Source: Pseudomonadota bacterium
GTDB taxonomy: Bacteria > Pseudomonadota > Gammaproteobacteria > Ga0077536
Assembly: GCA_036339995.1 (NCBI GenBank)
Contig: JAYYZW010000119.1
Span: 691-64,690 of the forward strand
Direction of reading: 5' to 3'
Length of the DNA stretch: 64,000 nt
Positions 13,798-53,392 of the stretch are shown here, piece by piece. The notes beneath the pieces are model-generated. The model saw only the letters and a program-made list of their open reading frames with translations. It had not been told where the DNA came from and did not search any database. Each line of letters opens with the position of its first letter. Position 1 is the stretch's first letter. The position numbers and the translations under genes were made by a program.

Positions 13798-13970
13798 CTT
13801 AGGGAATCTCTGAATAAGTCATGGTGCGTCTGAATTGTTCATAAAATTGTGCAGATCAAGGCACGAATCGCAGCCAATAGCGGGGACTATTGGCAAGGTT
13901 CGTAACGCTGAGCTGCGCGATTTTATGGGCAAGGCAGATGTGCCATGACTTATTCAAAGGTTCCTTAGGG
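13798..13970. repeat. MITE/REP-like palindromic mosaic element, copy 1 (about 173 bp)
   Basis: TIRs CTTAGGGAATCTCTGAATAAGTCATGG ... CCATGACTTATTCAAAGGTTCCTTAGGG. About 90% identical to the reverse complement of the copy at 31678..31847. Central hairpin CCAATAGcggggaCTATTGG. Confidence 0.8.
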
Positions 13971-31677: not shown

Positions 31678-31847
31678 TTTAGGGAGCCCCTAAATAAGTC
31701 ATGGTACATCTGCCTTGCCCGTGAAATCGCGGAGCCTTACGTTACGAACCTTGCCAATAGTCCCCGCTATTGGCAAGGTTCGTGCCTTGATCTGCGCGAT
31801 TTCGTGAACAATTCAGACGCACGATGACTTATTCAGAGGTTCCTTAG
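31678..31847. repeat. MITE/REP-like palindromic mosaic element, copy 2 (about 170 bp)
   Basis: TIR pair ...TAAATAAGTCATGG / CGATGACTTATTCAGAGGTTCCTTAG. Perfect 17-bp central hairpin ACGAACCTTGCCAATAG-tccccg-CTATTGGCAAGGTTCGT. Right end 7 bp from the pyrF ATG. Confidence 0.8.
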
Positions 31848-46896: not shown

Positions 46897-47418
46897 CTAG
46901 AGCTGAACGAAACCCGCGGACTTTAGTCGTTCGATCTCGTCGGGCCCATAGGGGACGAACTCGATAAACGGTGGGACTTCCGATTCCTCGAGGCCGAGAT
47001 TCGCGGCGGAGGCGGCACACATCTTAAAATCAAAAAGGTCGAAAGCATCGAGTTTTGCCGCGAGGTCGACGATGTTCTGATATTTCGAATAATTCCGGGA
47101 CGAGAAAAAATCGATGTCGGGGCCGTGAAGCACGAGCACGACTTTGAGGCTCGCGCGTTCGGCGACGTACGTTTCTTCATAAATCATGTAGGCGCGATCG
47201 AGCAGCGCGAAAAATTCATCCGTGCGGTGTCCGATGACGTCGAAATATAGCTTGGCTTAACTGGCCGGCGCGGGCACGGCAGTCTCCGACGGCGCCTGCG
47301 GTAACCGAATCGCGGCGGTGTCGGGCGCCTCGTCCTCGGATGCGGTAAGAAACAGCAACATGAGAACGACGGCAGCGAATGCCGCTGTCACGACGAGGGT
47401 TTTCAAGACTGGGTTCAT
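46897..47418 (-). pseudogene. DsrE/DsrF/TusC-like sulfur-relay family protein with N-terminal signal/TM segment, interrupted by an in-frame TAA
   Basis: ATG at 47418 encodes MNPVLKTLVVTAAFAAVVLMLLFL...PAS (53 aa), then TAA at 47257-47259. The same frame continues as AKLYFDVIGH...KVVLVLHGPDIDFF...FKMCAASAANLGL... through 46897. This part resembles the middle and C-terminal regions of TusC/DsrF, including a CAAS motif. Only an internal ATG (MIYEE, 47187) could otherwise start the domain. Confidence 0.35.
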
Positions 47419-47618
47419 GGCTGTCGGCGAAACTATCCTGGCGGGGCGCGATTGGGCGGCTCCGGGACATCCATTTTATTGTTAAAAGTTGCGGTTACGA
47501 ATGGCTTGCCGTTCCAGCAGCCGGATCGTTCCACATCTCCCTAGCTACTGATAGGTATATACTGCCGGACGTCTCATATGGTGGGTGGTGTGTGCACGTG
47601 GTGGCGGCGACGGCGAGC

Positions 47619-48257
47619 ATGGCGATCAGGATCCTGGACACAGCGCAGCTAATGGTCCAGCAGCGGGGTTTTCATGCCTTTAGTTACCGCGATATCGCGG
47701 ACGAAATCGGCATAAAATCGGCCAGCATTCATTACCATTTCCCGACCAAGCCGGATCTCGCCCGCGCGATTCTGGACCGCATCATCGTCGCCTTCGACGC
47801 ATGCCTCAAAGAACTCGACCTATTGACCGACACGCGGGAGAAATTACGGCGGTTCTGCGCGATATTCCTCGATACCTTTCAGGGCGGCGATCGCCTGTGC
47901 GCTTTCTGTATGGTCGCGACCGCGCAGGACGGTCTGCCCGCCGCCGTGCGCGCACGCGTGACCGACTTTTGGCAAACCGGTGAGCTCTGGCTGGAAGGCG
48001 TCCTCGAAGAAGGCCACAAGAACGGCCGGCTTGCGTTCTCGACGAATCCGCAAACGGTCGCGCGGCTGTTCATCGTCGGGCTCGAAGGGGGTATGGTTAC
48101 GGCGCGGGCTTTCGAAGATCGAGCGCGTTTCATTGCCATTGCGGATCACCTCGTGGCATCCGTCGTGCCGCCAGGGGCGAAACCCGAATCACTTAATACG
48201 GTCCAACCGGGTGGATGGGCTCGATTGAGCGCCGGCGATTCCACGAGCGGTCAATGA
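47619..48257 (+). CDS. TetR/AcrR family transcriptional regulator
   Basis: Start at ATG 47619 (MAIRILDTAQ...). N-terminal HTH FHAFSYRDIADEIGIKSASIHYHFPTK. Confidence 0.7.
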   Translation: MAIRILDTAQLMVQQRGFHAFSYRDIADEIGIKSASIHYHFPTKPDLARAILDRIIVAFDACLKELDLLTDTREKLRRFCAIFLDTFQGGDRLCAFCMVATAQDGLPAAVRARVTDFWQTGELWLEGVLEEGHKNGRLAFSTNPQTVARLFIVGLEGGMVTARAFEDRARFIAIADHLVASVVPPGAKPESLNTVQPGGWARLSAGDSTSGQ

Positions 48258-48307: not shown

Positions 48308-49117
48308 ATGAGACGCATGTTCGACTTGATCACGACAGTGCTGATGATCGGCGCGATCACCGTGGTGTTTCCGGCTATCGCCGAGCAATCGGACGTGGAC
48401 GCCTGGGCGACCCTGTTGAAACCCCATTATTTCGGTGATGCCGAACTCGTGGAAGGGCATTCCATCATCGAGATGAAAACGCCTTACCGCGCGGAGGATG
48501 CTGCGTTTACGCCGGTTTCCATCACGGCGAACATTCCGCAGACCGAAGAACGTTACATCGAGAAAATCTACCTGTTCGTCGAGAAGAATCCCCAGCCTTT
48601 GGCCGGTATTTTTCACTTGACCGCAGCGATGGGGCGCGCCGATCTCGCCATGCGGGTGCGCGTCGATATGTACACTAACGTCCGCGTGGTGGCGGTGCTG
48701 AATACCGGCGAGCATCATCTCGTAACGAATTTCGTCAAGGCCCAGGGCGGCTGCTCGGCGCCGCTGGCCTCGGATTTCGCAGCAGCCATGGAGAAAATCG
48801 GCTCGATGCGCTTTCGCACGGTCGGCGACCGCACTGCCGAGGATCTCCTCCTCGGCCAGTTCATGCTGAGCCATCCGAACGTCACCGGCATGCAGGAAGA
48901 CCAGAAAACCCACCTCTTCCGCCCCGCTCATTACGTGAAAACCATCAAACTCTATCAGGGTGACAAGCTCCTCATGGTTGCTGAAACCGGGTTCTCCGTG
49001 AGCGAAGATCCCACGTTCCGTTTCTTCTTCCGTCCCGATGGTGCCGCTGAACTGCGTGCGGAAGTAGAAGATTCCAAGGGCCTTTCCTGGGCAGAGACGT
49101 TCAAGATCAAAACCTGA
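48308..49117 (+). CDS. SoxY-SoxZ-like sulfur carrier fusion protein (quinoprotein-dehydrogenase-associated SoxYZ-like family type)
   Basis: Signal peptide. SoxY-like domain ending in a ...KAQGGCSAPL cysteine motif (corresponding to the SoxY GGCGG). SoxZ-like C-terminal beta domain (...FRFFF). AAGGAG RBS. Confidence 0.55.
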   Translation: MRRMFDLITTVLMIGAITVVFPAIAEQSDVDAWATLLKPHYFGDAELVEGHSIIEMKTPYRAEDAAFTPVSITANIPQTEERYIEKIYLFVEKNPQPLAGIFHLTAAMGRADLAMRVRVDMYTNVRVVAVLNTGEHHLVTNFVKAQGGCSAPLASDFAAAMEKIGSMRFRTVGDRTAEDLLLGQFMLSHPNVTGMQEDQKTHLFRPAHYVKTIKLYQGDKLLMVAETGFSVSEDPTFRFFFRPDGAAELRAEVEDSKGLSWAETFKIKT

Positions 49118-51651: not shown

Positions 51652-53223
51652 TTGAATATGAATGGCGCTCACGCCTTGCTAGATGCGCTGGTCGACGCCG
51701 GCGTCAATGTCTGTTTCGCCAACCCGGGCACCTCGGAGATGCATCTGGTTTCGGCCATCGGCAAAAGCGACGCCATGCGCCCGGTCCTCTGCCTGTTCGA
51801 AGGCGTCGTTTCAGGGGCGGCCGATGGCTACGCGCGCATGAGCGGAAAACCTGCGATCACCTTGCTGCATCTCGGCCCCGGATTCTCCAACAGCATGGCG
51901 AATCTGCACAACGCGCGCCGCGCGCATTCGCCGCTCGTCAACATCATCGGCGATCACGCTACCTGGCATCACAAGTACGACGCGCCGTTGACATCCGACG
52001 TACCTGCGCATGCCCGCATCCATTCGCATTGGCTCAAGGTAACGGAGTCCGCCGAGGACCTGGCCCTGGCCGGAGCCGAGGCGGTACAGGCGTCGATGGA
52101 AGGTGCGGGCAAGATCTCGACCCTCATCGTGCCGGCAAATCATGCCTGGGAGCCGGCGACGAAATCCTATGATCGCCTGCCGCCCCCGGAATTGCCGGCC
52201 GTTATTGACGCGCATGTCGATGCAGCCGCGAAGGCTTTGAAGAATGGCAGGCGAACGGCGCTGCTACTCGGCGGCCACGCCCTGCGCGATCCGTCCCTAG
52301 CGTCCGCCGGACGGATTGCGGCAGCCACCGGCGCGGCGCTGTTGTGCGAAACCTTTTCGGCCCGACTTGAGCGAGGCGCCGGGCGTGTTCCCTTGCAGCG
52401 CATTCCGTATTTTGCCGAACTGGCCAGCGAATATCTGAAGGAATTCGAACAGATGATCCTGATCGGCGCACAACGACCGGTCGCTTTTTTCGCGTATCCG
52501 GACGTCGCGAGCCTGCTCGTGACCGAAACCTGCGAAATGATCGAACTGGCCGGTGTCGATGACGACATCTCGGCCTCACTCGCCGCACTTGCAGACGCAC
52601 TCGATGCGCCGGCGAACGTCGCCGTGCAGCAACGCGTCGCATCTGTCGTGCCCGATGGCGAGCTGACTCCCGCTGCCGTCGGCGACGTCATCAACGCTCT
52701 GCTGCCCGAGCAGACGATTCTGGTTGACGAAGGGATTACCTGCGGACTGGAACTGTTCACCCGCACCGTGGGCGCGGCGCCGCACGACTGGCTCTCGATA
52801 ACAGGCGGGTCGATCGGCCATGGCCTGCCGGTCAGTTTGGGCGCGAGTATCGCCTGCCCGCAGCGCAAAGTCGTTGCGTTTCAGGCGGACGGCAGCGCTA
52901 TGTATACGGTACAGGCCCTGTGGAGCATGATGCGTGAAGAGACGGACGTTACGGTGGTGTTGATGAACAACAGCAGCTACGCCATTCTCAACATTGAGCT
53001 CACGCGACTCAAGACAGGCGAGCCCACGCCGAAGACGCTATCCATGCTCGACCTGTCAAACCCGGACATCGATTGGGTGAGCATCGCCCGGGGCATGCAA
53101 ATGCCCGCGAACCGCGCGGCGACGGTCGCAGAATTCCATCAGCAGTTTGGCGAAGCCATGCAAACGCAGGGGCCGTGCCTGATCGAGGTGAAGCTTGCGC
53201 AGCGACCGGGAGCTACTGCGTGA
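51652..53223 (+). CDS. thiamine pyrophosphate-dependent enzyme, benzoylformate decarboxylase / acetolactate synthase-like
   Basis: 523 aa. N-terminal PYR domain (FANPGTSEMH). C-terminal PP domain with a GDGS-type motif (FQADGSAMY...NNSSY). Confidence 0.8.
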   Translation: MNMNGAHALLDALVDAGVNVCFANPGTSEMHLVSAIGKSDAMRPVLCLFEGVVSGAADGYARMSGKPAITLLHLGPGFSNSMANLHNARRAHSPLVNIIGDHATWHHKYDAPLTSDVPAHARIHSHWLKVTESAEDLALAGAEAVQASMEGAGKISTLIVPANHAWEPATKSYDRLPPPELPAVIDAHVDAAAKALKNGRRTALLLGGHALRDPSLASAGRIAAATGAALLCETFSARLERGAGRVPLQRIPYFAELASEYLKEFEQMILIGAQRPVAFFAYPDVASLLVTETCEMIELAGVDDDISASLAALADALDAPANVAVQQRVASVVPDGELTPAAVGDVINALLPEQTILVDEGITCGLELFTRTVGAAPHDWLSITGGSIGHGLPVSLGASIACPQRKVVAFQADGSAMYTVQALWSMMREETDVTVVLMNNSSYAILNIELTRLKTGEPTPKTLSMLDLSNPDIDWVSIARGMQMPANRAATVAEFHQQFGEAMQTQGPCLIEVKLAQRPGATA

Positions 53224-53224
53224 G

Positions 53225-53392
53225 CTTAGGGAACCTCTGAATAAGTTACGGCACATCTGCCTTGCCCGTGAAATTGCGGAGCCTTACGTTACGAACCTTG
53301 CCAATAGTCCTCGCTATTGCCTGCGGTTCGTGCCTCGATCTGCACTGTTCATGAACAATTCAGACGCACCATGACTTATTCAGAGGTTCCTC
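53225..53392. repeat. MITE/REP-like palindromic mosaic element, copy 3 (about 168 bp)
   Basis: Same orientation as copy 2. TIRs CTTAGGGAACCTCTGAATAAGTTACGG / CCATGACTTATTCAGAGGTTCCTCA. Degenerate central hairpin. Begins 1 nt after the TPP-enzyme TGA. Its right terminus contains the TGA stop of the lipoprotein gene. Confidence 0.8.

Follow-up and report, generated by a model that had tools for sequence, protein, structure and literature searches.

The proteins closest in fold to the locus described here belong to two kinds of system. The DsrEFH and TusBCD proteins (PDB entries 2HY5 and 2D1P), which share the fold superfamily of its globular domain as judged from Pfam PF02635 and Foldseek, are soluble heterohexamers of the cytoplasm whose subunits derive from three paralogous genes lying side by side, whereas we find one gene whose intact products carry an N-terminal hydrophobic helix (residues 3-24) as a membrane anchor, followed by a tether. 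The best structural matches are MTH1491 (1L1S) and ST0148 (2PD2), small stand-alone DsrE-like proteins of unknown function, which have the same single-domain size and presumably, going by the 1L1S sequence, also a cysteine after the third strand. However, they are only 14-19% identical in sequence to the domain and have no membrane anchor or tether, both of which occur in the family described here, and this family is further set apart by an invariant set of its own (His64, HGP, Phe105, Cys134, Pro149 and a VPYGP.E..RL tail). The divergently encoded neighbour of the gene is a strong member of a third described group, the carrier family TIGR04557 (cf. PP_2677 of the Pseudomonas putida ped cluster; PMC12997753). 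The usual partner of this family is a PQQ dehydrogenase, and in ped-type clusters the carrier is found together with PQQ dehydrogenases, a rhodanese-domain protein and a SoxH-like hydrolase (PMC12997753). As to the kind of lesion, the locus resembles ordinary bacterial nonsense pseudogenes, which likewise show a one-base change common to close strains, later indels and independent losses in sister lineages; the only oddity is that a distant lineage carries its own stop one aligned codon off.

The gene lies in a window of 64,000 nucleotides (the whole stretch of DNA that was analysed), where positions 46897-47418 of the minus strand are read as a single frame consisting of a 53-codon leader, a TAA, 119 further codons and a TAG, with the translation MNPVLKTLVVTAAFAAVVLMLLFLTASEDEAPDTAAIRLPQAPSETAVPAPAS-TAA-AKLYFDVIGHRTDEFF...KMCAASAANLG...AGFVQL-TAG. 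The leader starts from an ATG at 47418-47416 with MNPVLK, which is followed by a 20-residue hydrophobic stretch and then by SEDEAPDTAAIRLPQAPSETAVPAPAS, and the frame past the TAA stays unbroken over all 119 codons (AKLYFDVIGH...KMCAASAANLG...PYGPDEIERLKSAGFVQL) up to the TAG. The sole ATG, GTG or TTG in frame after the TAA is the ATG of Met78 (M78), which opens a 96-aa ORF (46897-47187). The original prediction had located a 53-aa ORF with a hydrophobic leader, the in-frame TAA and a CAAS motif at the positions where the translation places them, and it had also held that no start codon occurs before an internal ATG whose use would cost the first beta-strand; M78 indeed falls within alpha1, and beta1 and most of alpha1 would be gone. 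The features of the locus are compiled in the table.

Table. Features of the interrupted gene and its divergent neighbours in the 64,000-nucleotide window.
Feature	Position	Strand	Basis
Leader and linker, ancestral codons 1-53, persisting as a 53-aa ORF	47260..47418	-	ORF list, translation
Hydrophobic helix, codons 3-24	47347-47412	-	Helix 3-24 in the AlphaFold model of orthologue P0001
Pro/Ala/acidic linker after the helix; short N-terminus with one Lys before it	within 47260..47418	-	Translation
Premature TAA that ends the frame at codon 54, where the closest intact orthologues have GAA (Glu)	47257..47259	-	DNA alignments A1, A3 and A5
Complete DsrE-fold domain, codons 55-173, start codon missing	46900..47256	-	Pfam PF02635, model of P0001, Foldseek, 107-sequence alignment A4
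Codon of Cys134	47017-47019	-	Invariant column in alignment A4
First in-frame ATG after the stop (M78)	47185..47187	-	ORF list; gene callers call a 96-97 aa 'DsrE family' fragment from M78
T6 run in the conserved HGPDIDFF segment	47105..47110	-	Alignments A3 and A5
Original TAG terminator, kept in all close orthologues	46897..46899	-	Translation, DNA alignments
TetR-family regulator, divergently transcribed	47598..48257	+	Pfam TetR_N and TetR_C_13
Fused SoxY-SoxZ-like carrier with signal peptide and GGC motif (AQGGCSAP)	48308..49117	+	TIGR04557, Pfam SoxY and SoxZ, synteny

We regard the locus as a genuine and young nonsense pseudogene of an uncharacterised, membrane-tethered and probably periplasmic DsrE-like family, a reading to which we would give a probability of about 90% on the strength of the sequence comparisons. 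The ancestral gene encoded a 173-aa protein in which a disordered tether rich in Pro and Ala linked an N-terminal signal anchor, predicted to be uncleaved, to a single domain of the DsrE fold with an invariant cysteine. In the lineage of the window, a G-to-T transversion turned the codon of Glu54 (GAA) into TAA, two codons before the first beta-strand, so that translation would now end past the anchor and the tether, and the domain, left with no usable start codon, would hence not be made.

The domain behind the stop codon belongs to the DsrE superfamily, as originally proposed. Its 119 residues match Pfam PF02635 with 29.2 bits (E 1.1e-6; profile positions 25-106 of 116), which is above the gathering score of 22.7, and the joined sequence scores 27.9 bits. 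No sulfur-relay or DsrE-family model of NCBIfam matches at E values up to 1, the only matches being sub-threshold ones to models of unrelated enzymes, and nothing relevant was matched among the PDB sequences by the family profile, so that a fold comparison was used. The intact orthologue P0001 (95% identical) was modelled with AlphaFold on the 107-sequence alignment, and the model contains a transmembrane helix (3-24), a disordered linker (residues 25-55, with pLDDT values below 50 at 27-49) and a domain (56-173) with a pLDDT of about 98, whose elements are beta1 (56-61), alpha1 (66-82), beta2 (92-97), a further helix (114-125), beta3 (129-134) and beta4 (152-155); the stop at codon 54 lies two residues ahead of beta1 in this model. 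Foldseek places MTH1491 (1L1S, target TM-score 0.84) and ST0148 (2PD2, 0.86) at the top of the PDB matches, with E values of 1e-5 to 1e-4 over about 118-121 aligned columns, followed by 3MC3, 2QS7, DsrH, YchN, TusB, DsrE and TusD. The probability is given as 1.00 for 1L1S, 2PD2, 3MC3, 2QS7, 2HY5_C and 1JX7, and the matches take in chains A-C of 2HY5 and chains A and C of 2D1P. The original prediction had gone further and likened the domain to TusC/DsrF in particular; while the superfamily is borne out, this closer likeness is not, since DsrF (2HY5_B) comes only 14th in the Foldseek order and the sulfur-relay models of NCBIfam do not respond. No TusC chain is among the PDB matches listed by Foldseek.

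Across the 107 aligned members of the family (alignment A4), His64, Gly99 of the HGP motif, Phe105, Cys134 and Pro149 are invariant, Cys134 being the last residue of the third strand in the P0001 model. This cysteine falls on Cys78 of TusD in a local profile alignment, which is weak (E 0.03, probability 1.6%) and gives no more than a lead. Leader and linker form the least conserved region of the family. The 64 kb window contains no other DsrE-like match and no paralogous partner subunit of the kind found in TusBCD or DsrEFH; the neighbouring genes, thiL, a TetR-type regulator and the SoxYZ-like carrier, do not constitute a partner operon of the TusBCD/DsrEFH type either.

The ancestral state of the gene is apparent from its orthologues. 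A search with the joined sequence returned 216 relatives, the best full-length ones being 173 aa long and covering 100% of the query (P0001, P0002 and P0003 with 95%, 84% and 70% identity), followed by P0004-P0009, which are 58-64% identical to the joined query, fall into the same 173-aa class and also cover it completely. Intact orthologues ranging from 95% to about 35% identity combine leader, tether and domain in a single ORF of about 173 aa, and an uninterrupted ORF with an N-terminal hydrophobic segment is present at 83 of the 97 family loci scanned; at the remaining loci, the cause is a contig edge, an assembly artefact, a hydrophobicity score that is borderline (L041 only) or one of the lesions dealt with in this text. 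Since the orthologues are single ORFs of equal length (173 aa), the sharing of one frame by leader and domain is not due to chance. The original prediction had pointed to orthologues as the place where a sense codon might occupy the stop position, and Glu is what the closest intact ones have there (PAPAS-E-AKLYFDV, PAPAG-E-AGFYFDV). At the DNA level, codon 54 is GAA in L002, L003 (Logan DRR683877), L004 (GCA_047516745.1), L005 (MAG CAXXLL01) and L090 (JGI Ga0310122), and TAA in the window, L001 (ENA ERZ27300296) and L109 (ENA ERZ23486253). As judged from GAA in the closest intact orthologues, the lesion is E54*, caused by a G-to-T transversion at the first base of the codon (plus-strand position 47259).

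The two further TAA-bearing loci, L001 and L109, are about 1% diverged from the window and come from other samples and assemblers. L001 is 99.07% identical to the window over 3435 bp (28 mismatches), and L109 shows further differences from it. The three copies have in common the amino-acid changes His77Tyr, Pro84Tyr (two bases) and Val128Leu, by which they differ from every other close orthologue; on the available alignments, they are one sublineage, and the stop arose once. Decay of the gene goes on in this sublineage: L001 and L109 also contain a 3-nt insertion (+3 T) in the T6 run of the conserved HGPDIDFF segment, and L001 has acquired in addition a +1 T frameshift in the leader and a Pro159Ser exchange at a nearly invariant position. 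Both indels that distinguish L001 from the window fall within the 522-bp gene, and the RraA, HpcH, SoxYZ-like and TetR genes are of full length. The copy in the window is otherwise clean, containing neither a second stop nor an indel, and its few private substitutions spare all columns conserved in at least 90% of the family; the lack of a second lesion suggests a young pseudogene. Nei-Gojobori dN/dS values of the window copy were determined against L003 and L004 and set against those of six flanking genes, the value against L003 being 0.41, which is based on only 14 differences, is not distinguishable from that of neighbouring genes and involves too few substitutions to separate a pseudogene from a gene. 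The case for relaxed selection thus rests on the sister copies L001 and L109 rather than on the copy in the window. No other coding region of the locus is as diverged as this gene in comparison with L090 (3.8%), L003 (2.9%) and L004 (10.7%), and its divergence of 1.15% from L001 is second only to that of a 228-nt rraA fragment.

Losses of the same gene by other lesions are seen in the surrounding lineages. L090 and the cluster P0010/P0130-P0134 (at least seven assemblies) have +1 T in the very T6 run that is extended by +3 T in L001 and L109, which marks this run as a mutational hot spot in the relatives; the insertion results in a frameshift, and L090 shows radical changes besides (Leu to Pro in VLVLHGP, Asp to Gly, FDF to FYF and CAA to CDA). 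In L002, the first 28 or so codons have given way to sequence that borders on a tyrosine integrase and an IS66 transposase, and a +1 frameshift is present as well. By our reading of these sequences, there are at least three independent inactivations around the window and the gene is being shed in the clade; because the sister lineages lost it by other lesions, it appears to be dispensable there. A metagenome pattern scan with CGCCGGCCAGTNAAGCCAAG retrieved 14 contigs, of which only L090 is orthologous, the others being chance matches to a GC-rich 19-mer. Several further candidates were discarded as lesions: the truncated call P0124/L108 is explained by a scaffold gap (run of N), P0126/L105, on a contig where the calls for thiL, nusB and ribH are broken and the aligned stretch shows homopolymer indels, is probably an assembly artefact, L106 is set apart from the intact L100 by one deleted C in about 280 aligned nucleotides and may reflect a read error, and L078 is a MAG contig that is frameshifted and whose quality is doubtful. 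The intact P0001, for its part, has a Tyr110Asp exchange at a nearly invariant position.

A second stop codon in the same region of the gene is found in L107 (JGI Ga0436649_0078487) and L010 (Tara MAG CAXGUU010000113.1), where an in-frame TAG (...MVPAVE-TAG-GKKFFFD...) lies one aligned codon upstream of the TAA of the window, the anchor ORF being intact and the domain open. The branch is a distant one, with a domain about 63% identical to that of P0016, and its two members differ by 63 substitutions in 1054 bp (6%), which indicates that the TAG predates their split. Stops within one aligned codon of each other in two unrelated lineages would be unexpected if nonsense positions were random: of the 173 codons, only 39 can become a stop in one step, and about 2-4% of the nonsense paths end within one or two codons of codon 54. 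The stop-bearing copies, except for L001 with its leader frameshift, are otherwise open in both the anchor and the domain ORF. There is a slim chance that the placement of the stop at the boundary of tether and domain is non-random, reflecting either read-through at a low or regulated level or selection for a clean truncation of the whole periplasmic domain. The idea behind clean truncation is that the domain would be removed entirely rather than left as a misfolded, anchored fragment. The L010/L107 pair itself reads as a second pseudogene whose lesion lies nearby by happenstance, going by the changes accumulated in it. Between the two domains, Sd is 6.5, Nd 15.5 and omega 0.65; the omega of 0.24 obtained for the intact pair L003-L004 is rejected for them at p = 0.03, and an omega of 1 is not rejected. 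Both copies have changes at invariant residues (HGP to HGS, LDA to LDT, VPYGP to VSYGP, and Arg164 to His).

These observations bear on an alternative to a nonsense pseudogene, namely a functional stop-codon read-through or recoding that would yield the full-length anchored protein at a reduced and possibly regulated level, with the boundary stop kept by selection. It draws on the open leader and domain frames of the window and L109, on the in-frame TAG kept with both parts open in the independent L010/L107 lineage, and on the small share of nonsense paths ending so close to codon 54. Against it, the nearest relatives have GAA and the stop is limited to one shallow sublineage, within which the leader frameshift of L001 puts the TAA out of frame, while the TAG lineage, with its domain omega and altered invariant residues, is under relaxed constraint. 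A TAA followed by G is a strong terminator, and this is the context found here, TAA being an ordinary stop in the window. A search of the window for structured RNAs or riboswitches with Rfam turned up no element, which also counts against recoding. We therefore consider functional read-through to have a very small probability. Related ways of decoding the TAA were discarded outright: reassignment of the codon is contradicted by the window itself, in which nusB, hpcH, dinB and three further genes end in TAA, and selenocysteine or pyrrolysine insertion does not apply to TAA.

It is highly unlikely, in our opinion, that the stop has created a new functional split, in which the 53-aa membrane peptide, the 96-aa cytoplasmic fragment starting from M78, or both have roles of their own. 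Gene callers do report the 53-aa and the 96-97 aa ORFs, the equivalents of the M78 ORF in other TAA-bearing assemblies being P0011 and P0128 (the same truncated gene calls), and the 96-aa fragment is still recognised as Pfam DsrE in precomputed annotations. However, with beta1 and the greater part of alpha1 missing from what is a compact alpha/beta domain, the latter is unlikely to fold, no purine run resembling a Shine-Dalgarno sequence precedes its ATG (GATCGCGCCTACATG), and it would remain in the cytoplasm, on the opposite side of the membrane from that on which the family is predicted to be anchored. The remaining leader and linker, in turn, represent the part of the protein that is least conserved within the family.

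An error of sequencing or assembly, with GAA as the true codon and an intact gene, is a further alternative, a single base setting the TAA of the locus apart from the GAA of the 95%-identical orthologue L003. Such an error is extremely unlikely, because the same TAA recurs in two independent assemblies from other samples which differ by other SNPs, and the same wrong base called three times is not credible. Of the three options left by the original prediction, nonsense inactivation is thus the one retained, in view of GAA in the orthologues, read-through being unlikely and sequencing error effectively refuted. Finally, the notion of two ancestrally separate genes for a small membrane protein and a DsrE-like protein abutting in frame, which had been named as an outcome that would speak against an interrupted gene, is of negligible probability: nothing but the stop itself favours it, leader, tether and domain lie in a single ORF in all intact orthologues (95% to about 35% identity), and the downstream part lacks a start of its own.

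The young nonsense pseudogene in the window stands at the end of a rib-nusB-thiL block and is paired divergently with the SoxY-SoxZ fusion, an arrangement that is kept in orthologues down to about 48% identity. The carrier scores 237.6 bits against TIGR04557 (cut-off 140) and has retained its signal peptide and the GGC motif. Synteny of the DsrE-like gene with the SoxYZ-like carrier is seen in L003, L004, L099, L100 and L101, and genes for an HpcH/HpaI aldolase and RraA-like proteins lie beyond the fusion in syntenic orthologues; more distant members of the family keep thiL alone or show no synteny at all (Sulfuriflexus mobilis). In L099, L100 and L101, the DsrE-like and SoxYZ-like genes have no TetR gene between them, its insertion at this place being confined to the close clade of the window, and the only operator candidate found for the regulator is a weak 15-nt palindrome at 47533-47556. 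The view that all three neighbours concern sulfur trafficking is supported for the SoxYZ-like carrier, by TIGR04557, but not for the TetR protein, which is generic and missing at this place in relatives. ThiL is a housekeeping enzyme. The surroundings also differ from ped-type clusters in containing an HpcH/HpaI aldolase, an RraA-like protein, DinB and a TPP enzyme, and the stretch from 43.8 to 59.2 kb of the window yielded no PQQ dehydrogenase.

As for the intact protein, a single Lys precedes the hydrophobic helix and acidic residues follow it, and most orthologues have a Pro directly after the helix (LTAP, LSAP, LAAP). Applying the positive-inside rule and the known specificity of signal peptidase, this predicts an uncleaved signal anchor with the domain held outside the cytoplasm on a flexible tether, the Pro sitting at the very point, just past the helix, that signal peptidase would need to cleave. 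The DsrE fold together with the invariant cysteine suggests that the intact protein is a putative persulfide or thiosulfonate carrier. Its domain would most likely face the periplasm, where it may have carried or transferred sulfane sulfur, possibly in cooperation with the divergently encoded SoxYZ-like carrier, and a functional link between the two genes is plausible. The family occurs almost only in gammaproteobacterial MAGs, many of them labelled as sulfur-oxidiser taxa, and includes representatives from Sulfuricaulis, Sulfuriflexus, Thiohalobacter, Acidiferrobacterales and Ectothiorhodospiraceae.

The significance of the pseudogene lies mainly in annotation. Pipelines will label the 96-aa ORF as 'DsrE family protein', as is the case for P0011, P0013 and P0128, but it would be better marked as what remains of the 3' part of a pseudogene and left out when the sulfur-oxidation capacity of this organism is assessed. 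The intact family, in turn, is a coherent and uncharacterised one, which combines a membrane anchor and a tether with a DsrE fold containing an invariant cysteine, and may be regarded as a candidate periplasm-facing member of a fold that has so far been studied only in the cytoplasm.

An in-frame TAG codon, lying one aligned codon from the premature TAA of the window's DsrE-like gene and independent of it, is common to the loci of L010 and L107, two contigs that represent a distant branch of the family and are 6% diverged from each other. In both of these, the anchor frame as well as the domain frame are open, yet invariant residues have been replaced. The T6 run within the gene represents a repeated indel site among the relatives, with +3 nucleotides in L001 and L109, which share the TAA of the window, and +1 in the sister lineage L090 and in the P0010 cluster, which comprises the proteins of frameshifted copies. 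In L002, another sister lineage, the DsrE-like gene is 5'-truncated, and the place directly upstream of it, which in the window belongs to the TetR and SoxYZ-like genes, is taken by an IS66 transposase gene together with one for a tyrosine integrase (1520-2710); the 5' end of the DsrE-like gene has apparently been interrupted or replaced by a mobile element.

Some of the truncated "DsrE family" proteins in public collections are assembly artefacts. Two relatives' contigs carry such short calls: L105 (ENA ERZ10645735 contig_1006), probably an artefact, exhibits homopolymer indels and broken calls for thiL, nusB, and ribH, and L108 (ENA ERZ23495140 scaffold_14928) contains an N-gap within the DsrE-like gene.

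Coordinates of features at the DsrE-like loci and of the MITE-like repeat
Feature	Sequence	Position	Strand	Remark
T6 homopolymer in DsrE-like gene	window	47105-47110	minus	inside conserved HGPDIDFF segment
DsrE-like locus with in-frame TAG	L010	359-895		
DsrE-like locus with in-frame TAG	L107	770-1306		
Mobile-element region beside DsrE-like gene	L002	1-2860		ENA ERZ28763718 ctg5254
MITE-like repeat	window	13799-13968	reverse	
MITE-like repeat	window	31687-31846		
MITE-like repeat	window	53222-53391		
MITE-like repeat, diverged	L002	4326-4498		thiL-nusB interval of related contig

The SoxY-SoxZ fusion (window 48308-49117) is a strong member of TIGR04557 ("quinoprotein dehydrogenase-associated") and has kept the GGC motif (AQGGCSAP). 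Its conserved neighbours are HpcH/HpaI aldolase and RraA-like genes, and no gene for a PQQ dehydrogenase, a rhodanese, or a SoxH-like protein was seen around it (window 43.8-59.2 kb).

The window contains three copies of a MITE-like repeat that is about 165 bp long and has terminal inverted repeats measuring about 26 nt (TTAGGGAACCTCTGAATAAGTCATGG ... CCATGACTTATTCAGAGGTTCCTTAG). No Rfam family reached its gathering score over the whole window (1-64000), including the FMN and TPP riboswitches, even though ribBA-ribH-nusB-thiL are encoded at 43.8-46.9 kb. An imperfect 15-nt overlapping palindrome (window 47533-47556; ACATCTCCCTAGCTA / TAGCTACTGATAGGT), which could be a TetR operator, lies in the intergenic stretch that separates the DsrE-like gene from the TetR gene.
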